Assembly (NCBI GenBank): GCA_036676455.1
Contig: JAKFCW010000047.1
Location: 69,203-101,202 of the forward strand
Origin: Candidatus Sericytochromatia bacterium
GTDB lineage: Bacteria > Cyanobacteriota > Sericytochromatia > S15B-MN24 > UBA4093
DNA: 32,000 nucleotides
Direction: 5' to 3'
In this document: positions 3,326 to 26,579 of the stretch, piece after piece
Position numbering within the stretch: the first letter of the stretch is position 1
Layout of the letters: each line of letters opens with the position of its first letter
Program-made: the position numbers and the translations under genes
Notes under the pieces: generated by a model
What the model saw: only the letters and a program-made list of their open reading frames with translations
The model's database searches: none
What the model was told of the DNA's origin: nothing

Positions 3326-3337
3326 GGCTAATCCCCG

Positions 3338-6115: not shown

Positions 6116-6128
6116 CAAAGGAGTCGTC

Positions 6129-7304
6129 ATGCCGATCCGCAGCCTTTTCCTGGCCCTGTCGCTGACCCTGGTCGCCTGCAGCTCTCCGCCCTCGACGCCG
6201 GCTCCCACCCCGTCGGCCCCGGTGGCGACTCCGCCGGTCGTGAAGCCCGTCACGACGCCTCCGCCCGGCACGACTCCCGTCACCGCGAGCGATCCGTACG
6301 TCTGGACGGTCGCGGGCAACGGAACGGCCGGCTTCCTCGATGCCGAGGAAGGCCACCTGGGCATGCTCCATGCGCCGACCGGCATGGTCGTCATTCGGGG
6401 CGACACCTACATCGCGGACTCCGCCAACCACAAGATTCGCCGCCTGACCTACGACGGTGTGCTCGAGACCGCGGTGGGCACGGGAGAGCGCGGCAACAAC
6501 GGGGATGGCACGAACGGTCCCATGCTCAAGCTCGATACGCCGTTCAAGGTGACGGCCGACGAGGCCACCGGCAACGTCTTCTTCAGCGAGCTGGGCGGCA
6601 ACCTGATCCGCTGCATCGACATCTCCCGGCGGATCATCACGATCGCCGGCGGCGGCGATTACCTGCCCGATGCCGGCACGTCCATGCGTGGCGTCTACGT
6701 GCAGCTCTCGGAACCGGCGGGACTTTCCTTCGATTCGGCCGGCGAACTCTACGTCGCCGAGCGAGGCGGCCACCGGATCCTGCGGATTTCCACCGACTGG
6801 ATGGTGACGGTGGTGGCCGGCAACGGCGTCCCGGGCTTCGCGGGCGACGACGGCCAGGCGCTGGACGCCGAGTTCCGGCAGCCCACGGACGTCTTCGTGG
6901 ACGATCAGGACAACCTCTACGTGGCCGACACTGGCAACCATCGGATCCGCCGCATCGGCTCGGACGGCACGGTCACGACCGTGGCGGGCACGGGCGTCGC
7001 GGGGGGCGAGGGGGATGGGGGGCTCGCCACGGAGGCCCAGCTGAACCACCCGACCGGAGTCACGATCGACGCCTTCGGCAACCTCTACATCGCGGACTCG
7101 GGCAACCACCGGATCCGGCAGGTGCAGCCCGACGGGACCATCGTCACGATCGCGGGCTCCATCTTCGGCGGGTACGGCGGAGACGGGGAATTGCCGTCCC
7201 AGGCGCAGTTCAACATCCCCTACGGCGTGGCCGTGGCTCCGGGCGGGGTGCTGCTGGTGGCCGATCGCGACAACCACCGCCTGCGGCAGTTCATGCTACC
7301 CTAG
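6129..7304 (+). CDS. NHL-repeat lipoprotein, paralogue of the preceding gene
   Basis: Start MPIRSLFLALSLTLVACSS with lipobox LVAC; NHL units TYIADSANHKIRRL, LYVADTGNHRIRRIGSDGTVTTVAGTG, LYIADSGNHRIRQVQPDGTIVTIAGS. Confidence 0.9.
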   Translation: MPIRSLFLALSLTLVACSSPPSTPAPTPSAPVATPPVVKPVTTPPPGTTPVTASDPYVWTVAGNGTAGFLDAEEGHLGMLHAPTGMVVIRGDTYIADSANHKIRRLTYDGVLETAVGTGERGNNGDGTNGPMLKLDTPFKVTADEATGNVFFSELGGNLIRCIDISRRIITIAGGGDYLPDAGTSMRGVYVQLSEPAGLSFDSAGELYVAERGGHRILRISTDWMVTVVAGNGVPGFAGDDGQALDAEFRQPTDVFVDDQDNLYVADTGNHRIRRIGSDGTVTTVAGTGVAGGEGDGGLATEAQLNHPTGVTIDAFGNLYIADSGNHRIRQVQPDGTIVTIAGSIFGGYGGDGELPSQAQFNIPYGVAVAPGGVLLVADRDNHRLRQFMLP

Positions 7305-7390: not shown

Positions 7391-8422
7391 TTAGTTGATG
7401 GTGATCTTGTACTCGGTAAGCGGGTCCAGCTCCGTCACGCCGAGATCCGGAAAGACCTGACCATCGTACGAGTTGAAGTCCACGTTCGCCGTGGTGGGAC
7501 CCGCCAGATCAACCGTGACGTTGCGCACCTGGCCATTGACCAGGGTGATCGCTTGCTCGATACGGTTCGCCGCGGTACCGGCGGCGTCCTTCGTGACGAT
7601 ATGCAGCTTCCAGGTGCCCGCGTGCACGGGGCCGATCGTTTGAACCTGGCCACCAGCCAGGTTGAGCATGAGGGGGGAGGCAGGATCATCCACCCAGGCA
7701 TCGAACTTGTATCCGGTCGGCAACCCATTGAGCCTCAAGCTCACCCGTCCCCAAGGCTTCACGTAGTTGACGGATTCCGCCGGAATGGCGCCGCCATTCG
7801 CCCGCATGTACTGGCCGATCTTGACTCCGTCCACCAAGCTCGGATGCATGGCCAGCGGTCCCGTGACGGTGACGCCCCACAAGATCATGTCGTTCACCAG
7901 CTTCTGCACCTGGCTGACATTCGTACTGATGGCCATCGCCGCGTTCCCGTTCTCGAGCATGTTCGTGTACACCTCGGACGTGGCAGTGGTGGTCCACGAC
8001 AAGTCGACCTCGTTGGCACCGGGCTCGATGGTCTTCACCGCGCCCACCACCGCTCCGGAGACCTCCGAGTCATCGGTCCTCAGGGCAAAGGCCTTGAAAA
8101 CGCGGTTAGGGCCCATCGGGACGTTGAACTGGACAGAGCCCGTTCCGGCGGCGATGGAAATCGTCTCGGAGAGGGGCGTCACCATCCCGGGGCCCGTGAC
8201 CTCAACGCGGGCCTTGGTGATTTCATAGGTCGGAACCGTCTGGACGCCGAAGCTGGAACTCGTGATCTTCGGAGTGAAGGCGCCCAAGGAGATCGTGACC
8301 GGCGCCGTCTTGGTAGCCACCTGAGGCACCGAGCCCTGGTCGAGAGCCGTTGGAGCGAAAGGCTGGCATGCCGAGACCGACATGGCCGCTGCTGCCGCCA
8401 GGCTGAGTATGATGCGCTTCAT
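7391..8422 (-). CDS. Hypothetical lipoprotein with beta-rich domains
   Basis: MKRIILSLAAAAAMSVSACQPFAP (signal peptide II, lipobox SVSAC); two beta-rich regions ending in GQVRNVTVDLAG...LTEYKITIN. Confidence 0.75.
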   Translation of the reverse strand: MKRIILSLAAAAAMSVSACQPFAPTALDQGSVPQVATKTAPVTISLGAFTPKITSSSFGVQTVPTYEITKARVEVTGPGMVTPLSETISIAAGTGSVQFNVPMGPNRVFKAFALRTDDSEVSGAVVGAVKTIEPGANEVDLSWTTTATSEVYTNMLENGNAAMAISTNVSQVQKLVNDMILWGVTVTGPLAMHPSLVDGVKIGQYMRANGGAIPAESVNYVKPWGRVSLRLNGLPTGYKFDAWVDDPASPLMLNLAGGQVQTIGPVHAGTWKLHIVTKDAAGTAANRIEQAITLVNGQVRNVTVDLAGPTTANVDFNSYDGQVFPDLGVTELDPLTEYKITIN

Positions 8423-8523
8423 TGAGTACCCCCTTCCCCGGCTCGACCTGCGGTTCGACTTTGGCCGGGATTTTGCGATGTCGATGCTACGTAGTTATCT
8501 AGTTAACCTTACCATTGCTTGCT

Positions 8524-9294
8524 TCAAACGGCTCCACCATGAGCAAGAAGTCGCTCGGTATCGGCGTAAATTGCCAGGTAATACGGAACCGTCAGCCGCT
8601 TTTGATCCTCGCACTCGAGCACCCATCCCAGGGGATGCGATACCAATACCCGTCCGTACAGGTTGCCCAGGCGCAAGCCCTCTCCAGGCCTGACCTTTTT
8701 CAAGCCCCTTCCCAAGACGAGGCTGGACAGGAGCAAACCGGTGGGGACAGCGAGGAGCGCCGAGACCCAAGGGGCCCAGGTAGCAAGGACGCTGAGTTCC
8801 AGGGTGGCCGCCAGGGTCGAAAGCCCGAATTGCGCGGATAGCAAGGCCGTCGCGATGCAGAGGGGAGGAAGGGCGATCGCCCCTTGCGGAACGATCCGCA
8901 TCTGGCGCTCCAGCTTCCGTTGCGCCGCGTCCTCGAGCTTGGCGAGCAACTCCGCGAGCACCGCTGCCACCGTTTCGGGATCGTCAGTCTGATCGAGAGT
9001 TTGCGTGAGACTTCCCCACGGGTCCCCATCCGATGGCTCAACGGGTTCGATGAGTGGCTTGCCTCTGGTCAGGAAATCGAAGAGGCGAACCCTGGATCGG
9101 ACGCTGGCATCCGGATCCGAGACAGCATCGGGAAAAACGTAGGGATTCGGACGTGGAGCGAGCTCCGGCGCTTCCACCTTGAAGACGTAGGGACTTCGAC
9201 GCGGTAGGCCCTTGATCGTGTTCAGGTCGATGACGTTAGCCATGGGACGTGCCGCAGGCGGTAGATCGGAAGTTCGCTGAGGGACGGACATCAC
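8524..9294 (-). CDS. Uncharacterised membrane protein, last gene of motor-like cluster
   Basis: AAGGAGG before ATG at 9294/9291; two to three hydrophobic segments (GAIALPPLCIATALLSAQFGL, WAPWVSALLAVPTGLLLSSLV) then a C-terminal beta-rich segment GEGLRLGNLYGRVLVSHPLGWVLECEDQKRLTVPYYLAIY. Confidence 0.7.
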   Translation of the reverse strand: MMSVPQRTSDLPPAARPMANVIDLNTIKGLPRRSPYVFKVEAPELAPRPNPYVFPDAVSDPDASVRSRVRLFDFLTRGKPLIEPVEPSDGDPWGSLTQTLDQTDDPETVAAVLAELLAKLEDAAQRKLERQMRIVPQGAIALPPLCIATALLSAQFGLSTLAATLELSVLATWAPWVSALLAVPTGLLLSSLVLGRGLKKVRPGEGLRLGNLYGRVLVSHPLGWVLECEDQKRLTVPYYLAIYADTERLLAHGGAV

Positions 9295-10025
9295 GGGGCC
9301 TCCTTCGGTTCGACCACGGGAATGGTTGCCGGGCGAGACTCGGGATAGAGCCGGATCACGATCCTGCGGTTGCGCGCCTGATTCTCCGGAATCGGCTTGC
9401 CCGCAGCGTCACGGTTGGGAACCTTCGGGTGGATATCCGAGTAGCCTGCGGCCTTGAGGCGCGATTGCTCCACGTCGGCCTCCAGCATGAAGCGGATGAC
9501 GTTCGTGGCCCGCCGCGCGGAGAGCTCCCAGTTGGAGGGAAATTCGGCGGTGCGAATCGGGTTATCGTCCGTATGCCCCTCCACCTCGATGGTGTAGGAA
9601 CGGTAGGTTTCGTTCTTCAACTCCTCGGCGATCTCGGTGAAGGTAGGCTTGATCGTCGGCAACAGCTCGGCCTTGCCGCTGTTGAAGAGGATGTTGGACG
9701 AGAATTCGACTACCACGCCCTTCTTGTCCTGGCTGACCTCGACCTGCTTTTCAAGGCCCTTGCTCTCGACGATCCGCTCGATCTGCTGCTTGATCTCCGA
9801 AATCGGACGTGCCGTTTCCTTACCGGTAAAGTCCTTTTGAAGCTGGGCGGAGACCTGCTCGAAGGCGCTGATGTCGACCGTTGAGACCGCCAGCATCATG
9901 ATGAAGAGCGCCATCAGGTTGGTGATGGTGTCGGCGTACGTGATCAGCCAGCCCTCGTCCTCCTGAAGTCCGCTGGAGCGGTGGGATCCGAAGGGATTGC
10001 GGTTCTGGCCGAAAGGACTTGCCAT
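9291..10025 (-). CDS. motB: MotB-like stator protein with C-terminal OmpA peptidoglycan-binding domain
   Basis: EDEGWLITYADTITNLMALFIMMLAVSTVD aligns with the MotB plug/TM region (Asp at residue 32); OmpA-like YTIEVEGHTDDNPI...NWELSARRATNVIRFML...KAAGYSDIHPKVPN...NRRIVIRL. Confidence 0.85.
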   Translation of the reverse strand: MASPFGQNRNPFGSHRSSGLQEDEGWLITYADTITNLMALFIMMLAVSTVDISAFEQVSAQLQKDFTGKETARPISEIKQQIERIVESKGLEKQVEVSQDKKGVVVEFSSNILFNSGKAELLPTIKPTFTEIAEELKNETYRSYTIEVEGHTDDNPIRTAEFPSNWELSARRATNVIRFMLEADVEQSRLKAAGYSDIHPKVPNRDAAGKPIPENQARNRRIVIRLYPESRPATIPVVEPKEAP

Positions 10026-10846
10026 CAGGTCCTCGCGGGGGTCTTAGCCCCCTTCGATGCCGCGAAGTGGTCGTAGTGGAAGGCGGGATCCATCAGCGCG
10101 TTCAAGCGATCCTGGACGTACAGGGGCGCCTTCTTCTGCGCGATGAGGACGATGCCCTCGAGTTGCATGTAGCGGCGGTGGCGCTGGATTTCCAGGATCT
10201 GCTGGGTCTTGGAGGCCGCCGGGATGAAGAGCAGGCGGGCCGCCATGACGCCATAGAGGGTGGCCAGGAGCGCCACGGCCATCGCGGGACCGATCTTGGA
10301 GGGGTCGGATCCCATGTTGGCCATCATGATGACCAGACCGATCAAGGTCCCCACCATCCCGAAGGCCGGCGCATGGCCACCCATCTGGTGAAGGATGGTG
10401 GCGGGAACCATGCGTCGCTGATGCTCCGACTCGATGAAGTCCCCCAGGAACAAGCGCAGGTCGGGCTCCTTGTAGCCGTTCATGAGCAGGGTCAGGGCGT
10501 ACTTCAAGAAGCCATCGAGCTTCTTTTTGGCGACCTCATCCTCGAGGGGACCGAGGCTCTGCTGGGTCGCGTAAGACCACTCGACCATCTGCTTGATGTC
10601 TGAGCGCAGGGTGCTGGGCTGGATCGGCTGCATGACGAAGATGCGGCCGAGCGTGACGAGCGCGCGCCAGACGTAGCGACTCCGCGCCCCGATCATCGCC
10701 GCGGCCACGGTGCCGCCGAAGATGATGGCAAACGGCTCCAAGCTCCAGAACATCGCGATGCTGCCGGAGTGCGCGACGATCGCCCAGCCGGTCAGGCCGA
10801 AGCCCAGGATGATTCCGAGGACGGTGGAGATCGAGATCATCGGCAT
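10025..10846 (-). CDS. motA: MotA-like stator protein
   Basis: Four hydrophobic segments; hallmark motifs GGHAPAFGMVGTLIGLVIMM and GPAMAVALLATLYGVMAARLLFIPAASK; N-terminal GIILGFGLTGWAIV...EPFAIIFGGTVAAAMI. Confidence 0.87.
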   Translation of the reverse strand: MPMISISTVLGIILGFGLTGWAIVAHSGSIAMFWSLEPFAIIFGGTVAAAMIGARSRYVWRALVTLGRIFVMQPIQPSTLRSDIKQMVEWSYATQQSLGPLEDEVAKKKLDGFLKYALTLLMNGYKEPDLRLFLGDFIESEHQRRMVPATILHQMGGHAPAFGMVGTLIGLVIMMANMGSDPSKIGPAMAVALLATLYGVMAARLLFIPAASKTQQILEIQRHRRYMQLEGIVLIAQKKAPLYVQDRLNALMDPAFHYDHFAASKGAKTPART

Positions 10847-10855: not shown

Positions 10856-12013
10856 CTATCGGAACGACATGCCGATGGTGGCATGGTAGCTCATCCCGCC
10901 GTACGTCATCGAATTCGCATAGCCGCTGCCGGCTGGGGCCAGGCTGACGTCCTGCTGCGGCACGTAGGTGAGCCCGAGGTTCATGAAGAGGTCCGGCGTG
11001 AAGCGGATCAAGAAGCCTCCCTTTGCGGTGGAGGGCTGGCGCAACGCGTCTGCGAGCGAGATCGCGAAGCCCGGCCCTGCGTACAGGTTGACCACGCCGA
11101 GGTTGTCCTTGCCCCCGAAGAGCGGGTCGAGACGCATGAACAGCAAGGGGGAGACGTTGACCAGGCCGTGATAGAGCGAGAAGTCGACGCCGCCGCCCTG
11201 GATGTACTCGGCATCGATACCGACCGCGAGATTCTCCCAGAAGTAGGTGTTGCGGAGCGCCATCACGCCAGCGCTCAGCGAGAGATCCGCATGACGCGCG
11301 GGAACTCCGGCCGTGGACGAGACCCGGTCGGCGGCGAAGCCCGTCACGCCGGAATAAAGGTAGACGCCATTGTCCCGGGTCTTCCGCTCGAGTTCGGCGC
11401 GCTTGGCGGCCTCGGCCTTGCGGGCTTCTTCCTCCGCCTTGGCGCGCATGGCGGCGCCCTGCCGAACGGCGTTGAAGTCGTAGGCATAGCGATGCGTCCA
11501 GACGATCTCGCCATCCGAGGCGCGCACCAGCTTGAGATGAACCATGACCACCTCGTTGGTCACGAAGGGCGCGTACATGAGCACGGCATCCGCCCCGACG
11601 TTTCCGGCCAGATCGCGCAGGCGATCCAGCGACTCGATGGTCGTGCTGACCTGGAGCTCGGTAGGCGTCGAGACGATCTTGCGGACCTTAGACTCGCGCG
11701 ACTCCACCACCTTGAAGCGACGAAGCGGCAGCAAGAGCTCGTGAAGGCGGTTCTCGACGAGGAGATCCAGCTTGTCGGTCTCGGGGCGGCGGCGCTCATT
11801 GAAAAGAAAGATCCGCAATAGCGTGGGATCGATCTTGGTGATCTCCTCGGGAAGCGCCGGGATGATCTGCTCGGCAGCCTGACTGTAGTTCAAGAGATCC
11901 GTGACGAGGGGATGCAGGGCAGGCGGCTCGACCTCGGCCATTGCCGGCGACGCGACGCTAGTCAAGGCGAGCGAAAGCGCGATTCCTCCAGATAGTAGCC
12001 ACTTGGCGCTCAC
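10856..12013 (-). CDS. Exported protein with FlgO/CsgG-like domain plus C-terminal outer-membrane beta-barrel-like region
   Basis: Signal peptide ending SPAMAEV; RLHELLLPLRRFKVVES...DRLRDLAGNVGADAVLMYAPFV...VHLKLVRASDGEIVWTHRYAYDF; coiled region RAKAEEEARKAEAAKRAELERK; then alternating beta-strand C terminus ending in aromatic GMSFR. Confidence 0.7.
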   Translation of the reverse strand: MSAKWLLSGGIALSLALTSVASPAMAEVEPPALHPLVTDLLNYSQAAEQIIPALPEEITKIDPTLLRIFLFNERRRPETDKLDLLVENRLHELLLPLRRFKVVESRESKVRKIVSTPTELQVSTTIESLDRLRDLAGNVGADAVLMYAPFVTNEVVMVHLKLVRASDGEIVWTHRYAYDFNAVRQGAAMRAKAEEEARKAEAAKRAELERKTRDNGVYLYSGVTGFAADRVSSTAGVPARHADLSLSAGVMALRNTYFWENLAVGIDAEYIQGGGVDFSLYHGLVNVSPLLFMRLDPLFGGKDNLGVVNLYAGPGFAISLADALRQPSTAKGGFLIRFTPDLFMNLGLTYVPQQDVSLAPAGSGYANSMTYGGMSYHATIGMSFR

Positions 12014-12016: not shown

Positions 12017-12766
12017 TTACCTCCTCCGATTCCGAATCCAGTCAAGCGCTTGCTGCGCGTCCGAGAGCCGTGGGTCCAACTCGAGGGCCCGGACCCACCC
12101 TTCCTCCGCCTGGCGCTCCCGACCAAGCTTGAAGCAAATCGATCCCCGCATGGCATGCAGGTGCGCCACCTGGTCGTCCACGCCCAGCGCGGCATCGACG
12201 ACCTCCAGGGCACTCTGGTAGCGGCCCTGCTGGGCCAGGCGCGGAGCACGGTAGAGCGCGTCGGCGACGATCTGCAGGCGTTCCGAGCCCAGCTCACGCG
12301 ACGCCGGTATCGCCGGAGCCTTGGCAGCGGCCGGCATCGGCAGCTCCGCATTCTTCGGGGTGGGAGTGGGGGAGGCCTGCGCCTGCAACTCCTCTTCCGC
12401 ATACTGCAGCCATTCGTAGGGCACATGGCTGGCGCTGGGGGAAGGCATCGGCTCGGGAAGGGCGCTGGTGGCCGACTCCTTGGCGTCGGTGCTCGAGGCT
12501 TCAGGGGTCGGCGAGGCCGCGGGAATCGCCCCCGGCGCGGGAGATTTGTCCATCTCGATGCGCAGGAAGAAATCAGGTTGATTGGTATCCAAGAGGGAAT
12601 CCACGTCAACCGTTTCCAGCCCGCGCTTCAGGTGGATGACTCCCTCGCGCTGGCCGGAAACCGGCGACGTCAGGCCCTGCTGGATGAGGACGAGGGGAAG
12701 CGTGGCGACGATGGTCAGGCCGTAGGCGATCGCCCAGACGCGCCGACGGTTCGGCAGATTTGCCAT
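12017..12766 (-). CDS. Membrane-anchored protein with C-terminal TPR-like repeats
   Basis: N-terminal TM VWAIAYGLTIVATLPLVLIQQG; Pro/Ser/Ala-rich linker; QQGRYQSALEVVDAALGVDDQVAHLHAMRGSICFKLGRERQAEEGWVRALELDPRLSDAQQAL. Confidence 0.7.
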   Translation of the reverse strand: MANLPNRRRVWAIAYGLTIVATLPLVLIQQGLTSPVSGQREGVIHLKRGLETVDVDSLLDTNQPDFFLRIEMDKSPAPGAIPAASPTPEASSTDAKESATSALPEPMPSPSASHVPYEWLQYAEEELQAQASPTPTPKNAELPMPAAAKAPAIPASRELGSERLQIVADALYRAPRLAQQGRYQSALEVVDAALGVDDQVAHLHAMRGSICFKLGRERQAEEGWVRALELDPRLSDAQQALDWIRNRRR

Positions 12767-12768
12767 GG

Positions 12769-14613
12769 TTAGTTTCCTCCGGCTTGCGGAATCACCAGCA
12801 CGCGGGTGGTCTGGCGAATCCGGCTAAGCAAATCACGGCGCATGGCCTCCCGGGCCTCCGGGTTGGCATCCAGCAGAGACGGGCCCTTGAGGGCCTCCTC
12901 GACGACCATGCGGCCGCGCTCGTTGAGCGCACCAACGAGCGCGTTGAGCACGTCGGCCGGCGCATCGCGCAGCACCTCGGCGAGTTGCTCCTTGGGGAAA
13001 TCGCGGACCGCATCGCGCAGCACGTCCTTGGGGAGCTTCGGCAAGTCGTCGAATGCCACGTAGCTTTGCTTGACCTGCTTGAGCACCTGGGGGTTCTGGG
13101 TCGACAGCTCCTGCATGATGCGCCGCTCCATCTCCCGGTCGGAGTGGTCCAACAGGCCCACCAGCACGCCGATGCCGTTGGTGACGCCCGTCGAGAAGCG
13201 CGGCGCCTCCGACGCCTTGCTTGCAAGGTGAAGCGCGATGTCGTTGAAGGTCTCGAGGGGAATCTCGGAAAGCGCGCCCATGGCTGCGGTGACGGTTCCC
13301 AGCTCCCCGGGACTCAGCAGGTGCATCAGGCCGATCGCCCGCTGGGGAGGCAGCTGGGAGAAGGCCAGCGCCTGGACGCGTGGGGACTCGTCCTGGAGGA
13401 TGTAAATGATTTGCGAGTCGTCGAGCGTCTGAAGAAAGGCGAAAGGCTCGTTACGGCGCGTGCTCGTCCGAGAACCGGCCGTGTGGCGATCGCGCACGAT
13501 GGCGCGAATGGCCTCGCTGAGGGCCTGTTGCAACTCCTCGGCGGGAACGTCGGCACGCTCGAACTGCTTGAGCTCGATCGCCCGCCAGATTTCCTCCGAG
13601 ACGCCTGCGAAGAGGCGACGGCTCACGCCCGCCCCGAGGGTACGGGTCAGCAGCGAGGCCCGCTCCATGCCAAGTTCTTGACCGAGCAGCTGGTGCATGT
13701 AGCGCTCGGCAAGCTCGGGCTCGCTCAGGATCAGCATCGTCAACTCGTGGCGCAGCGGCTCGAGGTTGGGCCCCTGAGGCTCGGCCGGCGTGCTCTTGAG
13801 AGCCGAAGCCGCGTGTGCGGCCTGCGGTGCGAGGGAAGGCGCATCCGGACGACGGCGCGAACGCGTGAGCAGCCACCCCAAGCCCAGTCCGGCGCCGGCA
13901 GCCAGGACGGCCCACGCCCACGGCGGAAGGAGCGGAGAATCAGCCGTGCCGGCGGGAGTCGACGGGAAGTCGCGGCGCGTGATCTCGACGATCAGGTCCC
14001 GGGCGTAGGCATGATCCACCTTCTGGGCGACCATGTTGCGAATGAAGTCCTCATCCTGGCTCGTCAGGGAGGTGGGCAGCACGACAGAAACTTTCAAACG
14101 ATCGATCGACTGGGTTGGAGCCGGATCGTTCGGAGGAGCCACGGGCGCCGGATTCGGCAGATAGGGCATCGCCATGGAGGAAGGCGGCTCGAGCGTCTCA
14201 TCCTCACGCTGTCCCCCGAAGAGGCCCGGAAGGATCGGCGGCTCGTCGGCGCCACGTGTCGACAGAGCCGAGGGCCGCTGCGTCGGAAGCTGGGGCAGCA
14301 TCTGAGGCGCTTGCTGAGGGAGCGGCTGTTGCACGTAAGCGGGCCGCGAGCCGCGCTCTCCGCCCTCCTTGAGGATCGCCTTCACCTGCACGATGAAGCG
14401 GTCGGCGCCGAGGTAGGCGCTCAGGCCACGATCCAGGCTCTCCTCGAGGTAGCGCTCGTAGCTCAGCACTCCCAGCTCAGACTCCGATCGGGGAACTTCC
14501 GGCGGATTGAGCTGCGCGCTGGCGGCCATGGGAACGAGGGTCCCCGCCAGCAGCGCTCCAATAATGACGGCTTTTCGATTCTTCAACGGTACGCAACCTC
14601 GCAATTGGTTCAA
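12769..14613 (-). CDS. FliF(C-terminal)-FliG-like fusion protein
   Basis: N-terminal signal-like sequence; YERYLEESLDRGLSAYLGADRFIVQVKAIL and IDRLKVSVVLPTSLTSQDEDFIRNMVAQKVDHAYARDLIVEITRRDF resemble FliF periplasmic C-terminal segments; TM PWAWAVLAAGAGLGLGWLLTR; then FliG-like FAFLQTLDDSQIIYILQDESPRVQALAFSQLPPQRAIGLMHLLSPGE and FDDLPKLPKDVLRDAVRDFPKEQLAEVLRDAPADVLNALVGALNERGRMVVEEALKG. Track start is TTG; an in-frame TTG at 14586 gives MKNRKAVIIGALLAGTLVPMAASA. Confidence 0.8.
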   Translation of the reverse strand: MNQLRGCVPLKNRKAVIIGALLAGTLVPMAASAQLNPPEVPRSESELGVLSYERYLEESLDRGLSAYLGADRFIVQVKAILKEGGERGSRPAYVQQPLPQQAPQMLPQLPTQRPSALSTRGADEPPILPGLFGGQREDETLEPPSSMAMPYLPNPAPVAPPNDPAPTQSIDRLKVSVVLPTSLTSQDEDFIRNMVAQKVDHAYARDLIVEITRRDFPSTPAGTADSPLLPPWAWAVLAAGAGLGLGWLLTRSRRRPDAPSLAPQAAHAASALKSTPAEPQGPNLEPLRHELTMLILSEPELAERYMHQLLGQELGMERASLLTRTLGAGVSRRLFAGVSEEIWRAIELKQFERADVPAEELQQALSEAIRAIVRDRHTAGSRTSTRRNEPFAFLQTLDDSQIIYILQDESPRVQALAFSQLPPQRAIGLMHLLSPGELGTVTAAMGALSEIPLETFNDIALHLASKASEAPRFSTGVTNGIGVLVGLLDHSDREMERRIMQELSTQNPQVLKQVKQSYVAFDDLPKLPKDVLRDAVRDFPKEQLAEVLRDAPADVLNALVGALNERGRMVVEEALKGPSLLDANPEAREAMRRDLLSRIRQTTRVLVIPQAGGN

Positions 14614-14711
14614 CTCTTTCCCCAGGATAGCGCTCGGCGCGCGATTCAGCGGTGACCCTCGTCATAGCCGGGTGCGGTATGATAACACCAGATAGTTCGG
14701 AGGCCATTCTC

Positions 14712-15227
14712 ATGCTTGTCACTCGCCCCCTCTGGGGACTTATCTGCGGTACGCTCTTGCTGAGCGGATTCAACTCTCCGGCCTGGGCCCAGGCGGCTCG
14801 GAACGCTGAGCGATCCCCCATCGAGTTCCGTCTTCACCACCCCGAGGCCACGGCATCGACGGACGTGGATATCTGGGCGCCGGCCGATCCCCGCGTGCTT
14901 CACGACACCCAGCAGGATCTCGCGGCCATCCAGCAGTCGGTCTCGCCGTCCCGAGACTCGCGCCCATCCTTCACCGACGCGCTCCTCACGGGGATGGCCA
15001 CGCTCCCGGTCATCGGCCAGTTCGCCAACCACGACTGGATGAAGGGCCTCGTCACCTTGGGCACCGCCGCCGGCCTCACGACCGCCATCGTGATCGGCAA
15101 CGACCGGAACGACCCGCAGCTCGTGCGGCTGGGAACCCTGGGCCTCTACCCCCTGGCGGTTTTCGGAACCGTGGACGCCCTCGTCACCCGCCAGAAACGG
15201 GAAGCCAAGCCTTCGGTTCACCCATAA
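14712..15227 (+). CDS. Hypothetical exported/membrane protein
   Basis: GGAGG upstream; MLVTRPLWGLICGTLLLSGFNSPAWAQA signal peptide; two C-terminal hydrophobic segments. Start chosen over the track start at 14652. Confidence 0.55.
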   Translation: MLVTRPLWGLICGTLLLSGFNSPAWAQAARNAERSPIEFRLHHPEATASTDVDIWAPADPRVLHDTQQDLAAIQQSVSPSRDSRPSFTDALLTGMATLPVIGQFANHDWMKGLVTLGTAAGLTTAIVIGNDRNDPQLVRLGTLGLYPLAVFGTVDALVTRQKREAKPSVHP

Positions 15228-15242: not shown

Positions 15243-16001
15243 TTAGATCTTCACCTGGGTCAGCACTGCCTCCGCACGCAACCCTGCGACCGTGAACTGG
15301 GCCTTGACGAGCCCCACCCCGGGAGCGAACCAGGCCTCGGTCGGTTCGCCATGGTCCTCGACGTAAAGCACCTTCCAGCACCCGGGAAACGTCGCCACCT
15401 CCGTCTCGACGCGTTCCAATCCGATCAGACGCGCCTTTCCGTTGATTGACGGCCAGTACATGCCCGGCGTCGCACGTTGCGGCATCATGGGCTTGCCGTC
15501 GACCTGGATCCAATCCTCGTCAACGCGGGCCTTCCATGCTTGATTCCCCGAAAGCCACCCCACCGTGAAGCGCGATTCCACCTCCAGCTCGAAACCCTGG
15601 TTCTTCGGCTCAAACCTCTGCACTGTCAGCTCCATGCGGCCTTGGGGAAACCAGCCATCGATAGCACTTAGGCGGTAATTCAAGACCGTGTTCGCACTGA
15701 AAACCATGGGCCCCTGGACGAACGTCCGTTGCACGGCCTCCGACGTCCCCCCTGCAGCCCCCTCTCCGGGAGTCGAGGGTTCTGCAACGGGAGCGTCTTT
15801 GGCTCGGTCGCTGGTGGCCCCGTCTTCTTTCCGCTTTTCCGGCTTGTCTGCCAGGGGATCAACACTCCATTCCGCCGGAGGCTGAAGCATCGTTCCCGTC
15901 TCCTGCCATTCGGCAGGCAAGCCTACACCCGAACTTGGGCATCCTGCGAGGGGCCAAGCGATCAGAAAGGCGATGGCAAACCGCGCGACCGTCCAATTCA
16001 T
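15243..16001 (-). CDS. Hypothetical lipoprotein
   Basis: MNWTVARFAIAFLIAWPLAGCPSSG lipobox; low-complexity linker; beta-rich C-terminal domain with EAWFAPGVGLVKAQF. Confidence 0.7.
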   Translation of the reverse strand: MNWTVARFAIAFLIAWPLAGCPSSGVGLPAEWQETGTMLQPPAEWSVDPLADKPEKRKEDGATSDRAKDAPVAEPSTPGEGAAGGTSEAVQRTFVQGPMVFSANTVLNYRLSAIDGWFPQGRMELTVQRFEPKNQGFELEVESRFTVGWLSGNQAWKARVDEDWIQVDGKPMMPQRATPGMYWPSINGKARLIGLERVETEVATFPGCWKVLYVEDHGEPTEAWFAPGVGLVKAQFTVAGLRAEAVLTQVKI

Positions 16002-17173
16002 GGGGTGGATTGGCCATCCGTTGGCACGATGAAAGGAATCAGGGCTGTGCGCCCAAACGCGTTCGCGCCACCATACGACCCGGATCCCTCCCAGTACTTG
16101 AGCACGTAGTAACGAGTCCCCGGATGGACCGTTTCGTCGAGCGTGAACGAGACCCGGGTCGTCATGGTCTCGGGGTCATGGGCCGAAGTCTCGTAACGCT
16201 GCAAGGGGACCAGACTCGAATTCGACTCCCTGACCGCGGAATCATAGATCTCGATGGCGTACTTCGGATCCGTCAGCCCGGTCTTGGCCGGAAACTCGAA
16301 AGTCACCTCCCGGGACTCCAGCACCGAATTCATCGCGGGAGTGGCTGCCGAGAGATCCCAACTCAAATCGAATTCGACCTCCGGGACCTCCGTTTGCGTC
16401 GCCGAAACCTGGACGGGCTCGGAGATGGCAAACTGGGGTCGGCGAGGCATGGCCGTGGCCACTGAGATCGTGCCCTCGAAGCCGGAATAGCCGGAGTAAG
16501 TGGGATACGAGCTGTGGTATCCCAGGTGGTAGGCCCCATCGCTCAGGTTGAAAAAGTTTGCGGCCCCCGCCGGGGTCACCTGGGTCGATCCGTAACTGTA
16601 AAAGTAGAACGGCGTGACACCCTCGCGCCGGAACACGCCCATCGAGAGCTGCTCACCAGTGGCTTCTCCGCCGATCACGCGACCGTAAAGCTGACTGCCC
16701 AGGACGTTTTGATCCACCAATGGAGTCAAAGGGCTGTATGGCATCACCGTGCTCTTGCCGGGGGTGTCGAGCAGGATGTGAAGCGAGGCGTAGCTGCGCC
16801 GTCCAGGCATGAGCATGGCCATGGTGTAGCCGTACCCAACGACCTCTCCGGATGCGAGCATGGCGCTGACCTTGATCGAGGCTTCCCCGGAAGGCAACCC
16901 TGAGAGGTCGATATAGTTGCTCTCAGCTTTCGGCAGGGTGCGCGTCTCCGTCCGACCATCCTCGAGCGTCAACTCGACTTTCAACTCGGCAAGATCCTCG
17001 GCGATGACCTGAGCCTTCCTCCCGAAGTCGACGCTCATGCGCAACGATGCGCCCTGGTGCTGGGACGAAACCAATGAAGGCATGGCTGCCGGGGCGCAGC
17101 CAGTTAGCCAAAGCGATGCCGCCACTGCGAGGGCGAAGGCCCGGGACGTGTGGTTTATCGTCATGTCAATCAT
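15998..17173 (-). CDS. Hypothetical lipoprotein, Ig/fibronectin-like C-terminal region
   Basis: SD-like GGGGGAGGGG before ATG 17173; AFALAVAASLWLTGCAPAA lipobox; C-terminal VHPGTRYYVLKYWEGSGSYGGANAFGRTALIPF. Confidence 0.68.
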   Translation of the reverse strand: MIDMTINHTSRAFALAVAASLWLTGCAPAAMPSLVSSQHQGASLRMSVDFGRKAQVIAEDLAELKVELTLEDGRTETRTLPKAESNYIDLSGLPSGEASIKVSAMLASGEVVGYGYTMAMLMPGRRSYASLHILLDTPGKSTVMPYSPLTPLVDQNVLGSQLYGRVIGGEATGEQLSMGVFRREGVTPFYFYSYGSTQVTPAGAANFFNLSDGAYHLGYHSSYPTYSGYSGFEGTISVATAMPRRPQFAISEPVQVSATQTEVPEVEFDLSWDLSAATPAMNSVLESREVTFEFPAKTGLTDPKYAIEIYDSAVRESNSSLVPLQRYETSAHDPETMTTRVSFTLDETVHPGTRYYVLKYWEGSGSYGGANAFGRTALIPFIVPTDGQSTP

Positions 17174-18074
17174 TCGCGACCACCCCTCCCCCTTCAAATA
17201 CGACCCCTTCCCGCATCAACGTCGAAACCACTCCGTTCTCGTCGCTGATGACTTCCTTGAGAAGGCCTTCCGATGCCCCGTACCAGCGATCCACGGTCAC
17301 CTCTGTCCATGTCTGCGCGTCGCCGGGATACTGGTTTGTCCAGCGATAATGGCGGACCTTGGTGCTCGGCGCTAGCAACTCGGAGTCCACGTAAACCGCG
17401 TGAGTCGGGATGGCGGTCCAGGAATCCGTCGGGTAAGATTCCGACACTCCTGCTCCAATTCGACGATAAACCGTCGAATACTGCACCTGAAAGGTCACCG
17501 CGACCCGCTGGGAGTCACGCGTAAGCCAGAAGAGCAATTGCTGCTGGTTCGGATAATACGCGGCAAAATCCGAATCGAATCCGTCTGCATGGCTCAGACG
17601 GCGGTAATCAAGCAGGCGTTGCCCAAAGCTGACACCAAGATCGAGTGCCGGCTTACCCCCGTGGAGTAGGCTGAAACTGACAGGTGTCTCCTCGCCCGGC
17701 AAGAGGACGACGGCCATTTGCTGCCTATCGTGCATCGCGTGGGTCTCGGCGTCGCGCGCCGTCACGGTTACCGTGACGGGACCGGGCACGAGATTCGCGA
17801 TTACAGTCGGTTCGTCGAGTTGAAGGACCCGGGGTTCAACCACGACATTGCGATACTCCCAGCCCGAGTACGCAACTTCGAGGAGCACCTCGATGCCTGC
17901 GGTGCTCTGGAGCTGGCGAGGCACAGAGACAATCGCTCTCATGCGACTCGTCTCGGCACTGGCGATCTCGGTCGCAGGTTGCAGAGTCGTCCCCGTCGTG
18001 GTCACGCCCTCGCAGCCCAGAAGGAACATGGTGGGCAGGGCCAAGAGCAGACCCCATCGATTCATCTTGCGCAT
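17166..18074 (-). CDS. Hypothetical lipoprotein
   Basis: MRKMNRWGLLLALPTMFLLGCEGV lipobox; beta-rich IVSVPRQLQSTAGIEVLLEVAYSG; C-terminal DRWYGASEGLLKEVI. Start at 18074 rather than the track start at 18116. Confidence 0.68.
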   Translation of the reverse strand: MRKMNRWGLLLALPTMFLLGCEGVTTTGTTLQPATEIASAETSRMRAIVSVPRQLQSTAGIEVLLEVAYSGWEYRNVVVEPRVLQLDEPTVIANLVPGPVTVTVTARDAETHAMHDRQQMAVVLLPGEETPVSFSLLHGGKPALDLGVSFGQRLLDYRRLSHADGFDSDFAAYYPNQQQLLFWLTRDSQRVAVTFQVQYSTVYRRIGAGVSESYPTDSWTAIPTHAVYVDSELLAPSTKVRHYRWTNQYPGDAQTWTEVTVDRWYGASEGLLKEVISDENGVVSTLMREGVVFEGGGVVAND

Positions 18075-18078
18075 TACC

Positions 18079-19566
18079 CTACCCTTCCTCGGACGGTGCG
18101 GCCGGCGTGAAGTCAATCAACTCGTAGGTGGTCACCTGGCGCTGGCGAGGGAGGGGGTCCCGTTTGCCTTCGTGGGAATAGTGGTATCCACCGACGCGAG
18201 TCTCCACGGAGCGCACGACGCCCACGCCCTCGACCAGCCAAACCTCACGGGTGACTCCGGATTCGGGGCTGGTGAAATAGTGCTTCGCCAGTCGTTGACC
18301 GAGGGCCGGAACGTTGAGCGTCACCTCAGGCAAGGTCTGGATGCCGTTAGTGGAACTCAAGCGAAAGATCGGACTCAGCTCGGAAGCGGACCCGTTCGCC
18401 AAGTCGAACGCCCGCAAGGTCGAGTAGCTGTAGGACTCATATTGCCCGCGCCCGTCGTCATCGAGCATCTCCACCCGCATCGTGCGGCTCCAGGACGACG
18501 TGCCCCCTCCCTGAGACTGCGGATAAGTGTAAGTTGTGCTCACAAGGTAGTTCCAGCGCGTACCGGCGGCCAGGGGGAGTGCCTCGAAAGGCGGCTTCCA
18601 AAGGTCCTGCCCCACCCAGCGAGTGGGGTTCTGGGGTGGGGCATCCGGAACCTCGATGAGTTCCACGTCTAGCGAGGCGGTGGCCTGCGTGGGCATCGAG
18701 AAGTCGATACTACGTGACGTGACGCCGTCCACCATGACCATGAACTTCGGCTGGAGCTTGTCGGGCTTGGTGAAGTAATCGGCAAAACCGGAGAGCAGGT
18801 CATGGGGGACCGTCAGGGTGAGTTGCGTGTCGGAATCGACGGTGACGGCGGTTTCCGGAAGCGACCTGCGCATCATTCCAAACCCTCCTGATGGCACTGG
18901 CATCGGGAAGATGAGGTTTGAATAAGGCAGGTACTGGTAATTCAGCCCCACGTAAGCCAGGGTTTTCCAGTTCTTGGACTTGCCAAAGCCAGAGCCGGCG
19001 ACGATGATCCGGTCTCCAACCCGCCAGTCGCTCTTGGACAGCGAGGTGATCACCGGCGCGTCAACGGCCACGAGCTCCATGCCGACCGTCGCGAAGAGGC
19101 CAGGCACGACGTCGATGCGCTTCTCGTCCGAAGCCACGACCTGATTCTGAGCGTCACGAACTTCTGCCTGAATGAGCAGATCCGCCTGGACCGGAAGGTC
19201 CCATCTCAAGGAACCGTAAGTGTTGAACCCGGCGGGGTAAGGGCCGTAGTAATAGGGATCCGCCTGGCGGTAGATCTCCACGGGGGCGATCGCCTTTCCC
19301 GACGAATCAATCGCCTGCGATCCATCCGCGCGCGTCAGCGTAACGACCGCCTTGATCGCCCGGTTGGGAATCGCCTGGAGGGAGGAACCGGAATCCGGCC
19401 AGCGAATGCCCAGCCCCAGGCCGCCGACTCCAGCCTGTGTGTGCGCCTCCGTTTGCCCCGTGCCGATCGCATTCGAGGTCCACTGAGTGCCAACAGGAAC
19501 CGTGCAACCCAACAGGGCTGAAACGAGGCCGAAGGCGATCCACGTCTTGAAATCTCGCTGTCTCAT
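18079..19566 (-). CDS. Hypothetical lipoprotein with IPT/TIG-like domain
   Basis: MRQRDFKTWIAFGLVSALLGCTVP lipobox; IPT/TIG-like PVITSLSKSDWRVGDRIIVAGSGFGKS...LTLTVPHDL; C-terminal EVWLVEGVGVVRSVE. Confidence 0.7.
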   Translation of the reverse strand: MRQRDFKTWIAFGLVSALLGCTVPVGTQWTSNAIGTGQTEAHTQAGVGGLGLGIRWPDSGSSLQAIPNRAIKAVVTLTRADGSQAIDSSGKAIAPVEIYRQADPYYYGPYPAGFNTYGSLRWDLPVQADLLIQAEVRDAQNQVVASDEKRIDVVPGLFATVGMELVAVDAPVITSLSKSDWRVGDRIIVAGSGFGKSKNWKTLAYVGLNYQYLPYSNLIFPMPVPSGGFGMMRRSLPETAVTVDSDTQLTLTVPHDLLSGFADYFTKPDKLQPKFMVMVDGVTSRSIDFSMPTQATASLDVELIEVPDAPPQNPTRWVGQDLWKPPFEALPLAAGTRWNYLVSTTYTYPQSQGGGTSSWSRTMRVEMLDDDGRGQYESYSYSTLRAFDLANGSASELSPIFRLSSTNGIQTLPEVTLNVPALGQRLAKHYFTSPESGVTREVWLVEGVGVVRSVETRVGGYHYSHEGKRDPLPRQRQVTTYELIDFTPAAPSEEG

Positions 19567-19576
19567 GCTTCGTCCC

Positions 19577-21301
19577 CTAGTAGATGTAGACATTCAAGCC
19601 ACCACTGGTCCTGTTCGTGAAGAGGCCAGGAGTCAGGTGGATGCGGGTTCCAGGCGTACCGCCCGCGCCGTCCATCAGGACCAGGTAGGGCCACGTCTCG
19701 TTCTTGGAAACATTCAGGCCGCCCCGTTCATCGAAGGGAGCGTCGTAATCGATCCGTCCGATCACGGTCCTGCTGGGGATGTCAACGAAGCGTGCCTCGA
19801 CGACGAGTCGCAGCGGCTCGGAATCCAGCGTCACCGTTCCTTCGAGGCGAAGATTCTCCATTTCGTCATCGAGCACGAAACTCAGGACGCCTCCCGTGAT
19901 CATCGAGCGCTCGCCCACCTTCTCGATCCGCACCGAGGCGTCGGCTTTGGCGAGGAATACCGAGCGAACTCCCGCCTTGTCGCGAGGCGCGAGGCGAAGC
20001 GTGACGCTTCCGCTCGTGAAATCGGGATTCAAAGCAGCGGACAACGCAGCATGTAACGAAGGGAATTCCAGGCTTGCCTCACCCTTGGTGGGAAAGCGGG
20101 TCAATGAATTTACTGCGACGCCATAATAAGCGTATGGGAAGTAAACGTACCCGTTCGGATTGGCGTCCCGAATCGCGGCGAGCAGCGGGGACGTCGCTGT
20201 TTCCCTAACCTCATTGAGTTCTAGGGCCGCCTTGAAGCGACTCGCCACCTGCCCCTGCGGAACGATTTCACCGCTGAGACGCAGCGCGCTGATGGTTTCA
20301 GGAACCGGGCGTTCCCCTCCAAAAAGGTCGAAGGCCCGAGCGCCCGTGGTTTCCGATTGCGGATTGACGCCCGCAAACGAGCCCCGCAGTTGTGGCTCTG
20401 CCACCCAGGAGGATGTCACATCCGCCGACAGGGTCGCCCTGGTCTGATCACCACTCGGGGAACTCGGATTCAAGGCGAGATCGAGGCGTCGCTGCAAGGG
20501 GCCAGACGTGAAGGCCTGGGAAATCTGATAGCCAGGCCAGAATGCTTTGAGGATCGCGCGATCGCGCAGCTCCAGGCCAAGTATGGATTGGCCCGGCAGG
20601 TGCCAGGTCTCAACTGTACCAGGGGCGCCCTCGATGAGCGTGCCGTTCGCGCCAAGGCTCATGGCATGGAAGAGGTGTTGGCCGTTCGAATTAAACGAAT
20701 CCACCACCTGGCGAACGGCAGCTTCCATGGTCAGCACCTCGGGGAAAGTCCGAGGGTTCACCCAGTTATCGAAACGATCGGCGTAATGATAGAGGTCTTT
20801 CAGGAGGGTGATCTGACGAGAGATCCGGATCGTCAGTGAGGCCTCGTTGTCCAGGGTGATGACGACGCCCGTCGACGTGTTGTCACGAATCGGCACGTCC
20901 GCTTGCCCGCCTTGGGCTAGGATCTTGCCGCCCCCCCGGACAACGACCTCCACGTTCACCGTTTCGTGAGCGGGCGAGATCTGGAAAGAAAAGGTGGAGA
21001 CAGGCGATTCCCCGGCAGGGCGATCGATCGTCTTGCTGACCAGGAGCTGATTGGACTTCGAACGGACCGAGACTTCGATGGTTTCGGCTTCGAGCGGAAT
21101 GGCCTGGGTCGCGAGGGGACGCGCGGGCCACTGGATGCGCATGACCAGGTTGCCTTGGTGGGCAGGTTGCTCCATGGCGTCCAGCCCCGCGTCCCCGGAG
21201 GAAACCTTGGGCGTGTCGGCGACGTTGGGCACTCCCACCGTACAACCCACGAGTCCGATGGCGACGACGAGGCCCCAGCGGGCGATGACTTTCGACTTCA
21301 C
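19577..21301 (-). CDS. Large hypothetical lipoprotein
   Basis: MKSKVIARWGLVVAIGLVGCTVGVP lipobox; N-terminal MRIQWPARPLATQAIPLEAETIEVSVRSKSN; long beta-rich body. Confidence 0.7.
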   Translation of the reverse strand: MKSKVIARWGLVVAIGLVGCTVGVPNVADTPKVSSGDAGLDAMEQPAHQGNLVMRIQWPARPLATQAIPLEAETIEVSVRSKSNQLLVSKTIDRPAGESPVSTFSFQISPAHETVNVEVVVRGGGKILAQGGQADVPIRDNTSTGVVITLDNEASLTIRISRQITLLKDLYHYADRFDNWVNPRTFPEVLTMEAAVRQVVDSFNSNGQHLFHAMSLGANGTLIEGAPGTVETWHLPGQSILGLELRDRAILKAFWPGYQISQAFTSGPLQRRLDLALNPSSPSGDQTRATLSADVTSSWVAEPQLRGSFAGVNPQSETTGARAFDLFGGERPVPETISALRLSGEIVPQGQVASRFKAALELNEVRETATSPLLAAIRDANPNGYVYFPYAYYGVAVNSLTRFPTKGEASLEFPSLHAALSAALNPDFTSGSVTLRLAPRDKAGVRSVFLAKADASVRIEKVGERSMITGGVLSFVLDDEMENLRLEGTVTLDSEPLRLVVEARFVDIPSRTVIGRIDYDAPFDERGGLNVSKNETWPYLVLMDGAGGTPGTRIHLTPGLFTNRTSGGLNVYIY

Positions 21302-21315
21302 GGCTGTTACCTCGG

Positions 21316-22863: not shown

Positions 22864-22916
22864 GGTGTCGCGCGGTCTCCTGCTACATCGAAATGCGATC
22901 AATTGCACGTCTTGCG

Positions 22917-26500: not shown

Positions 26501-26552
26501 GCGCGGGAAATCTCCGACGTGAACCTGGGGACGGCCTCGGCCGCGTGGGAGC

Positions 26553-26579
26553 ATCATACCAAACAAGCATGTTTTCTAA
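26553..26579 (-). promoter_or_regulatory. Candidate extended -10 promoter for the 26500 gene
   Basis: Minus strand TTAGAA-15 nt-TATGAT with TGG immediately before TATGAT, in the divergent gap between genes starting at 26500(-) and 26612(+). Confidence 0.3.

Follow-up and report, generated by a model that had tools for sequence, protein, structure and literature searches.

A conserved natural FliF–FliG fusion encoded with flagellar-type MotAB suggests a rotor–stator module apart from the flagellum

Introduction

Can the rotor and stator of the bacterial flagellum be found together, as a conserved unit, away from the rest of the machine? Outside a complete flagellum, the rotor (FliF/FliG) and its stator are hardly known. 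The question is raised by a gene within a 32,000-nucleotide stretch of Candidatus Sericytochromatia bacterium (GenBank assembly GCA_036676455.1, contig JAKFCW010000047.1, positions 69,203 to 101,202 of the forward strand), which we refer to as the window. A first-pass annotation, made from the sequence alone, had proposed that this gene encodes a C-terminal segment of FliF fused to FliG, forming a stripped rotor whose membrane anchor and torque domain are inseparable. Here, we describe a predicted protein that very probably carries the C-terminal half of FliF joined directly to all three FliG domains, its conservation across phyla, and its recurrent association with genes for a flagellar-type stator and two further envelope proteins. 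Export-gate, rod, hook, filament, and FliM/FliN genes are all absent from the 32-kb window.

Results

A single predicted polypeptide combines FliF and FliG elements

The fusion gene lies in one uninterrupted minus-strand open reading frame (ORF), which at its longest spans 12769–14613 and encodes 614 amino acids (aa) from a TTG start in the ORF list. Gene calling on identical metagenome contigs places the start nine codons later, at TTG 14586, yielding a 605-aa protein (P0001, 100% identity). The later codon is preceded by GAGG at a distance of ~10 nt, in contrast to TTG 14613, which is directly abutted by a run resembling a ribosome-binding site. This difference in spacing leads us to favor 14586 as the likely start, and residue numbers refer to the 605-aa form unless stated (adding 9 converts them to the 614-aa numbering of the first-pass annotation). 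A frame error that makes two ORFs appear as one was ruled out, because the same one-polypeptide architecture is kept in ~35 sequence clusters from several phyla. A mechanical ORF list also contains an antisense ORF of 631 aa (12760–14655, plus strand) that spans the entire fusion gene in a stretch of 67% G+C, and comparable long antisense ORFs are found throughout the window. Family scans were carried out on the minus-strand ORF only, and every family and structure match belongs to that ORF.

The encoded protein very probably consists of FliF elements (RBM3a, an insert, RBM3b, TM2, and the C-terminal tail) followed directly by FliG (N, M, and C domains), where RBM stands for ring-building motif and TM for transmembrane. 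RBM3 is, as we take it, the part of FliF that builds the S-ring. The N terminus reads MKNRKAVIIGALLAGTLVPMAASA followed by Q, with a K/R-rich n-region, a hydrophobic core, and an ASA ending, and this signal-peptide-like segment appears to occupy the place of FliF TM1. Given a cleaved signal peptide and a TM helix that obeys the positive-inside rule, residues 25–221 are predicted to be periplasmic and residues 243–605 cytoplasmic, which is the topology expected of the C-terminal half of FliF.

An AlphaFold (AF2) model of the full protein, built on 22 homologues, reached a mean predicted local distance difference test (pLDDT) score of 68, with 75–90 in the domains, and a predicted template-modeling (pTM) score of 0.27, at which the inter-domain geometry is meaningless. 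The model places a helix and a strand ahead of a Pro/Gln-rich stretch (75–157, pLDDT <50), which is followed by a strand, a helix, a second strand, and the TM helix with its RSRRR flank; on the cytoplasmic side, a disordered linker leads into an all-helical region (276–595). A separate model of the periplasmic part alone shows the same elements. The outline drawn by the first-pass annotation is thus recovered: the 614-aa ORF is intact and begins with an export-like, signal-peptide-like segment ending at ASA before Q; its two periplasmic segments correspond to a helix and strand at ~47–81 and a strand-helix-strand at ~170–213, separated by a Pro/Gln-rich stretch of ~85 aa; and its TM helix lies at ~231–251, ahead of RSRRR (all in 614-aa numbering).

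The periplasmic part is remotely homologous to FliF RBM3

We aligned profiles of 37 family members and 24 FliFs, including that of Escherichia coli, with hhalign. Three separate and collinear matches emerged, pairing family residues 42–72 with E. coli FliF 237–267 (RBM3a; E=3.8e-4), 160–207 with 373–429 (RBM3b; E=2.8e-5), and 276–304 with 522–550, the extreme C-terminal FliG-binding helix (E=2e-4; reversed control, 0.17). The two helices that follow the TM helix thus match the last 30 residues of FliF, and their binding to FliG is predicted here. When the whole periplasmic region was aligned end to end, it matched E. coli FliF 237–429 at E=2.5e-5, while the same queries against reversed FliF sequences gave E=0.17–0.53. 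Aligning the full family with the FliF alignment gave E=3.3e-5 for RBM3a.

A search of 1.84 billion representative proteins with the periplasmic-domain profile returned 38 hits. Two of them, P0177 and P0179, are ordinary FliFs that carry both YscJ_FliF and YscJ_FliF_C, and they are matched exactly over the latter, with whole-library E values of 4e-4 and 1e-3. The profile search therefore retrieves true FliFs and, with the end-to-end alignment and its reversed control, upholds the proposed origin in the FliF C-terminal region. Family member P0154 scores on Pfam YscJ_FliF_C (PF08345) directly (E=1.5e-3), and a fragment in the Vibrio nigripulchritudo cluster is named "M-ring protein FliF/YscJ" by a JGI source. 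Most family members carry the FliF-like RBM3b signature "RGD..l.I....F", which reads RDL in the clade of the window protein. In a Foldseek comparison with the Protein Data Bank (PDB), FliF MS-ring entries rank first (9A67, 8ZDS, 8T8P, 8FTF, 6SD3, and others; E=0.007–0.1). An earlier hhalign run, in which a shallow 15-sequence alignment was compared with Firmicute FliFs, aligned RBM3a only (E=0.021, probability 2%); the FliF match became convincing once the family alignment was widened and E. coli FliF, P0177, and P0179 were among the FliFs compared. We consider the RBM3 identity of the periplasmic part to be one of remote homology only.

FliF TM1 and RBM1/RBM2 are missing from the fusion protein, in line with the first-pass claim that the first ring-building motifs are lost: a Pfam scan of the window protein found no PF01514 (YscJ_FliF, RBM1/RBM2) match, and only the signal peptide precedes RBM3a. 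The title of PDB entry 8FTF describes a 33-mer ring of RBM3, which we read as suggesting that RBM3 can build a ring without RBM1/2. The first-pass annotation had also recognized flanks of the FliF beta-collar. The flanking RBM3a and RBM3b stand, whereas a collar, as a barrel formed between subunits, is beyond the reach of monomer models, which place a low-complexity, Pro/Gln-rich insert with pLDDT <50 at its position.

Within this insert, residues P117, L119, P120, G121, and L122 are invariant in the family alignment. They belong to a PxLPGL motif that is invariant in the middle of the insert (columns ~165–172 of alignment A1) and reads LPGLP in most of the distant members; hhalign sets it opposite a "dvPxYPG" stretch of Firmicute FliF. 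The LPGL motif could act as a peptide on which the TPR partner described below docks.

The RBM3-like domain also occurs without FliG. One related locus (L013) encodes, beside a full fusion gene, a 422-aa protein with only the split domain and a TM segment (8725–9993), and P0156 is a putative lipoprotein in which three tandem RBM3-like units precede TPR repeats.

The cytoplasmic part is a divergent FliG

Pfam FliG_M (31.3 bits, cut-off 25; 400–470) and FliG_C (38.3 bits, cut-off 23.3; 502–601, both in 614-aa numbering) were matched above their cut-offs, as the first-pass reading of FliG middle- and C-terminal-like helices had anticipated. FliG_N scores 24.3 bits in the window protein (cut-off 25) and 40.2, 34.4, and 32.1 bits in its relatives P0145, P0147, and P0150, respectively. 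Compared with PDB sequences, the family profile matches Thermotoga FliG-MC (1LKV) at E=9e-18, and its residues 281–590 align to chain residues 17–320 of full-length Aquifex FliG (3HJL). Because this alignment begins at residue 17, the FliG N domain is present as well. All three FliG domains are therefore represented, and the stretch that the first-pass annotation overlooked (aa ~285–380 in 614-aa numbering) corresponds to the FliF C-terminal helix and FliG_N. A generic helical repeat or MgtE_N assignment was rejected, with MgtE_N at 23.4 bits, below its cut-off, against FliG structure matches at 1e-17. Neither of the outcomes that the first-pass annotation had held against itself, generic helical repeats and a frame error, was thus found.

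Despite this domain content, the protein is unlike flagellar FliG in several respects. With the fliG equivalog model TIGR00207, it reaches 45.8 bits, far below the cut-off of 226.7. The FliG regions of family members score 106–310 bits among themselves and 16–86 bits against E. coli or Aneurinibacillus FliG, while the latter two score 190 bits with each other. The FliG of the fusion is thus best placed, on these scores, in a separate clade that is not orthologous to the flagellar switch protein. The FliM-binding EHPQR motif is lost, with EHPQ replaced by ESPR in the window protein and by EEGI/EEEI in P0145/P0147. In the torque helix of the window protein (E. coli numbering), K264 corresponds to Arg, R281 to Arg, R287 to Glu, D288 to Glu, and D289 to Ala, and R297 is not conserved.

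The fusion family is conserved across phyla

The family comprises ~35 clusters at 50% identity from Sericytochromatia-like metagenome-assembled genomes (MAGs), gammaproteobacterial MAGs, and the cultured V. nigripulchritudo. Most of the 38 profile hits are 560–780 aa long with the RBM3-like domain at the N terminus, and all seven relatives checked against Pfam carry C-terminal FliG domains. Many positions are invariant in the family alignment, which describes a distinct clade conserved across phyla. Databases name its members "FliG C-terminal domain-containing protein" or "hypothetical", and the literature that we searched holds nothing on this fusion family or on the five-gene module described below. 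A word-indexed search had returned 22 relatives and suggested a tiny Sericytochromatia/"cyanobacterial" family, a view corrected by the exhaustive profile search. Two relatives with 41–44% identity, P0018 and P0019 (locus L007), are labeled by NCBI as Pantanalinema and Stenomitos, both filamentous cyanobacteria. The closest genome match of L007 is a Sericytochromatia MAG, and no photosynthesis genes are among the L007 neighbors. Misassignment of these bins is one possible explanation; another is that true cyanobacteria also carry the module.

The fusion gene recurs with flagellar-type motAB

To describe the genomic setting, we compared ten loci, comprising the window and nine relatives, the latter across up to 10 kb around the gene (L005 was checked for module genes only). 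By sequence, the fusion gene belongs to a module of five predicted components: an FlgO-like outer-membrane barrel protein (X), a TPR protein, the FliF'–FliG fusion, and flagellar-type MotA and MotB. The genes for the fusion, the TPR protein, and X occur together in eight of the ten loci, and motAB is adjacent in seven, drawn from Sericytochromatia-like MAGs, gammaproteobacterial MAGs, and V. nigripulchritudo. Module loci include Candidatus Sericytochromatia CBMW_12 (L005), contigs from Sericytochromatia-like or "cyanobacterial"-labeled MAGs (L007, L009, and L014), gammaproteobacterial contigs (L010 and L012), and the complete genome of V. nigripulchritudo (L015; AP027045.1, near 3.07 Mb). The order of the module genes varies between loci. 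As in the window, no export-gate, rod, hook, filament, or FliM/FliN genes were found within 10 kb in the related loci, with L005 covered for module genes only.

The first-pass annotation had overlooked that the fusion gene sits upstream of motA and motB. Both proteins match flagellar models along their whole lengths, MotA those of MotA/PomA at 1e-43 and MotB those of MotB/MotD at 1e-48, compared with ~1e-3 for ExbB/TolQ, which rules out an Exb/Tol-type stator. An NCBIfam flagellar motor protein model matches MotA at E=8e-43. Both fall below their NCBIfam equivalog cut-offs (146 versus 237 bits for MotA). The proton-binding channel Asp (E. coli MotB D32) and the equivalent of MotA E98 are conserved. 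Plug and OmpA domains are hallmarks of flagellar-clade stators (FIT clade; PMC12505986). The sequence evidence places the predicted stator in the flagellar clade.

Only 3 nt separate the stop of the fusion gene from the start of the TPR gene, and a TPR homologue adjoins the fusion gene in every examined locus except L011. Pfam FlgO scores 31.1 bits (cut-off 22.6) in the L007 orthologue of X and more weakly in the window protein (E=0.056); X is homologous across phyla and scores weakly on FlgO in most members. The C-terminal half of X looks like an outer-membrane beta-barrel with a terminal aromatic residue. The coordinates of the fusion, its parts, and its partners are given in Table 1.

Table 1. 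Positions in the window of the fusion gene, its predicted parts, and adjoining genes
Feature	Position	Strand	Description or basis
FliF'(C-terminal half)–FliG fusion gene	12769..14586	-	605 aa; longest ORF reaches 14613 (614 aa)
Signal-peptide-like N terminus, aa 1–24	14515..14586	-	Predicted; ...PMAASA before Q; direct reading; model helix 4–16
RBM3a-like helix and strand, aa 38–72	14371..14475	-	AF2 helix 38–59, strand 65–72; hhalign to FliF
Pro/Gln-rich insert, aa 73–159, at the FliF beta-collar/variable loop position	14110..14370	-	pLDDT <50; end-to-end hhalign
RBM3b-like strand-helix-strand, aa 160–207	13966..14109	-	AF2 strand 161–170, helix 176–189, strand 198–204; hhalign; family alignment
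Single TM helix, aa 222–242, then RSRRR (positive-inside); FliF TM2 equivalent	13861..13923	-	Sequence and AF2
Two short helices, aa 276–304, homologous to the FliF extreme C terminus	13675..13761	-	hhalign
FliG N-terminal domain, aa ~305–375	13462..13674	-	Profile alignment to 3HJL; Pfam FliG_N
FliG middle domain, aa 391–461	13204..13416	-	Pfam FliG_M; EHPQ to ESPR
FliG C-terminal (torque) domain, aa 493–592	12811..13110	-	Pfam FliG_C
TPR partner: N-terminal TM anchor, Pro-rich linker, C-terminal TPR repeats	12017..12766	-	Pfam TPR_2
Partner X, 385 aa: signal peptide, FlgO-like alpha/beta domain, coiled-coil linker, C-terminal barrel, end ...GMSFR	10856..12013	-	
MotA, flagellar-stator type, PomA/MotP-like, full-length match	10025..10846	-	Pfam MotA_ExbB; NCBIfam
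MotB, plug and OmpA-like peptidoglycan-binding domain	9291..10025	-	Pfam; NCBIfam
Two downstream genes, 256 aa and a 343-aa putative lipoprotein	7391..9294	-	343-aa protein kept after motB in L009

Genomic neighborhoods of the module

The two genes downstream of motB are possibly clade-specific accessories. Directly upstream of the fusion, a divergent gene (14652–15227, plus strand; a 191-aa ORF called as 171 aa) has no family match and is kept at the same place in L005 and L009 with 42–47% identity. In the window, Tad-like genes flank the module to either side. One flank encodes a CpaF-type ATPase (29891–31444) and two TadB/TadC-like T2SSF proteins, together spanning 27980–31444 on the minus strand, and the opposite flank encodes a ParA/MipZ (CpaE-like) ATPase (3338–4555) and a short TadB-like T2SSF protein (2630–3325), both also on the minus strand. 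The module in L009 is likewise embedded among Tad-pilus-like genes. A polysaccharide export cluster forms the neighborhood of L010, and a GGDEF regulator and an AsmA-like protein that of the V. nigripulchritudo locus.

An outer-membrane barrel of the DUF5723 family, PorV/PorQ-like at its N terminus, is encoded at 23097–24389 (minus strand), beside a 726-aa protein without a family match (24386–26566, minus strand). The DUF5723 gene also adjoins the module in L007 and L009, where its orientation varies. Between this gene and the module, the window holds six consecutive minus-strand genes of 252–574 aa (15243–22908) with almost no family matches, one of which matches Big_2/CarboxypepD_reg weakly. 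Because these genes are missing from that position in L009, the segment looks like a lineage-specific insertion. A Sel1-repeat protein of ~470–490 aa is encoded beside the module in two gammaproteobacterial loci, L010 (5191–6663) and L013 (12340–13746); the two are 30% identical, with a weak SPOR match in the L010 protein and none listed for the L013 copy. An NHL-repeat beta-propeller gene in the window (5955–7304, plus strand) is overlapped by long antisense ORFs, and NHL proteins are also encoded near the module in L007 and L009.

Discussion

A candidate rotor driven by its own stator

What could such a combination of parts do? Our preferred reading, to which we assign a probability of roughly 60%, is that the fusion forms a filament-less FliF'–FliG ring rotor that is turned by the module's own MotAB. 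The term "stripped rotor" is suggested by the parts and their gene context, as distinct from a demonstrated function. The RBM3 domain would oligomerize into a periplasmic ring, each subunit of which holds one TM helix within the inner membrane and one FliG beneath it. MotA5B2 units fixed to the peptidoglycan and energized by ion flow via the MotB Asp would push on the FliG C-domain helix and thereby turn the ring. Because the module lacks switch proteins, rotation would probably be unidirectional. The TPR protein and X are probable periplasmic or outer-membrane scaffolds or output partners, and they may contact the conserved LPGL motif of the insert. A scaffold or outer-membrane role for both proteins would be analogous to that of TPR/Sel1 scaffolds and FlgO in elaborated flagellar motors.

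It is possible, at somewhat under even odds in our estimate, that the module is a free-standing, ion-driven rotary motor with no filament, coupled via the TPR protein and the FlgO-like barrel to a task other than swimming, such as surface movement, secretion, or envelope work. Such a motor would have arisen by radical reduction of the flagellar motor, or else it would be a still-surviving relative of a rotor–stator core that existed apart from type III export.

Several observations weigh against a ring rotor. Ring formation and rotation are predictions from sequence and gene context, and the FliG ring would have to work without FliM/FliN. A Pro/Gln-rich insert modeled with low confidence stands in place of the beta-collar, which in the flagellum lines the ring. 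The window protein has no Pfam YscJ_FliF_C match at E≤1, and the periplasmic-domain profile finds no match among PDB sequences even at E≤10. None of the Foldseek matches reaches significance (best E=6.6e-3; none ≤1e-3), and the alpha-beta-beta-alpha-beta fold is generic, with MamB/YiiP C-terminal domains scoring similarly and interleaved in the list. On the motor side, the torque-helix charges are poorly kept in the gammaproteobacterial family members, the equivalent of MotA R90 is Gln in the window (Arg in the gammaproteobacterial members), and no motAB was found within 10 kb in L011 and L013, two loci with long flanks.

Alternative explanations

The alternative that survives best is a trans-envelope force transducer, in which the fusion acts as a TolA/TonB-like arm that MotAB engages through its FliG domain and no closed ring is needed. 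The Pro-rich periplasmic segment would then reach the TPR protein and X at the outer membrane, making up an energized envelope system of the Tol-Pal/TonB kind. We consider this unlikely, even though the parts parallel those of Tol-Pal (TolQR, TolA, TolB/Pal, and the TPR protein CpoB). The long Pro-rich insert with its invariant short motif would suit such an arm, as would the coupling of a periplasmic domain to an outer-membrane barrel in X, the Sel1 and SPOR protein that adjoins the module in L010, and the homologous Sel1-repeat protein in L013. However, the stator is of the flagellar clade, with a plug and an OmpA domain, and not of the Exb/Tol type; the Tol/Ton arms known so far couple to their stators by a TM helix and not by FliG; and the periplasmic domain is homologous to a ring-building motif.

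A second alternative, which we regard as improbable, is that the module is a motor dedicated to the neighboring Tad-like pilus or secretion apparatus, for example rotating or repositioning it in surface motility or secretion. Tad-like genes do flank the module in the window (27980–31444 and 2630–4555) and in L009, and a PorV-like/DUF5723 barrel gene adjoins it in the window, L007, and L009. However, Tad genes do not accompany the module in V. nigripulchritudo or in the gammaproteobacterial loci, where its neighbors are polysaccharide export, AsmA-like, or housekeeping genes, and we know of no Tad or type IV pilus system that uses FliG or MotAB. Finally, it is very improbable that the module is an accessory or regulatory part of a flagellum (for example, a stator sink or an alternative rotor subunit) or that it is the decaying remnant of a flagellar cluster since lost: databases label the family FliG, and V. 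nigripulchritudo, as a Vibrio, presumably carries ordinary flagellar genes, but the module has its own MotAB and non-flagellar partners away from flagellar genes, the FliM-binding EHPQ motif is lost, and neither a pseudogene nor an assembly artifact would be expected to give a cross-phylum clade with many invariant positions.

Comparison with known systems

The ring rotor that we favor shares with the core of the flagellar MS-ring and C-ring a homologous RBM3, TM2, the FliF C-terminal tail, and the FliG N, M, and C domains, along with a 1:1 FliF:FliG logic, a flagellar-clade MotA/MotB, and partly conserved torque-helix charges. Unlike in the flagellum, these elements form one polypeptide instead of two, a signal peptide takes the place of TM1, RBM1/RBM2 are absent, and a Pro-rich insert takes the place of the collar; the EHPQR motif is lost, and the loci lack FliM/FliN, export-gate, rod, hook, and filament genes. 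FlgO, an outer-membrane flagellar protein of Vibrio, resembles X in the FlgO-like domain of the latter, which differs by adding a C-terminal beta-barrel. Periplasmic TPR/Sel1 scaffolds of flagellar stators (MotX, PflA/PflB, and FlcA) can be likened to the TPR and Sel1 proteins of the module. The periplasmic arrangement of alpha-beta, insert, and beta-alpha-beta is also that of SpoIIIAG and other RBM ring proteins whose RBM carries an insertion, and the similarity between FliF RBM3 and SpoIIIAG has been noted before (Bergeron 2016, PMC4768692). Unlike SpoIIIAG, the fusion family has a sequence affinity specifically to FliF, through its RGD-containing RBM3b and C-terminal tail, and no sporulation context.

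A natural FliF–FliG fusion has been reported once before in the literature that we searched, in the Chlamydiaceae. That protein of ~330 aa carries TM1, an RBM2-like domain, one unassigned RBM, TM2, and only a FliG-M-like region (PMC4768692), and it was discussed in connection with the injectisome, with no link to a stator (Bergeron 2016, PMC4768692). Both fusions are natural single chains in which the periplasmic region is reduced, and neither is found in the setting of a full flagellum. By that published description, the present family is set apart in keeping RBM3, TM2, the FliF tail, and all FliG domains, and it is paired with MotAB, unlike the chlamydial fusion. Laboratory FliF–FliG fusions (Salmonella deletion fusions and Vibrio FliFG, PDB 8Z4D/8Z4G) demonstrate that a covalent link is compatible with ring assembly, and the family profile matches 8Z4D over its FliG part. 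In contrast to a conserved natural family, the laboratory fusions are engineered or spontaneous, include FliF at full length, and operate in or come from complete flagellar systems.

Significance of the module

What is new here is that parts derived from the flagellar motor occur in a conserved minimal combination. The module would bear on how the rotor–stator pair arose and on whether it can work without an export gate, a rod, or a switch complex. Because it occurs in the cultured and sequenced V. nigripulchritudo, these ideas are directly testable. A module that keeps only RBM3-TM2-FliG and MotAB would provide a minimal system in which to study how rings assemble and torque is generated, would inform flagellar evolution with one more data point, and would probably reveal a new use of a flagellar-type motor.

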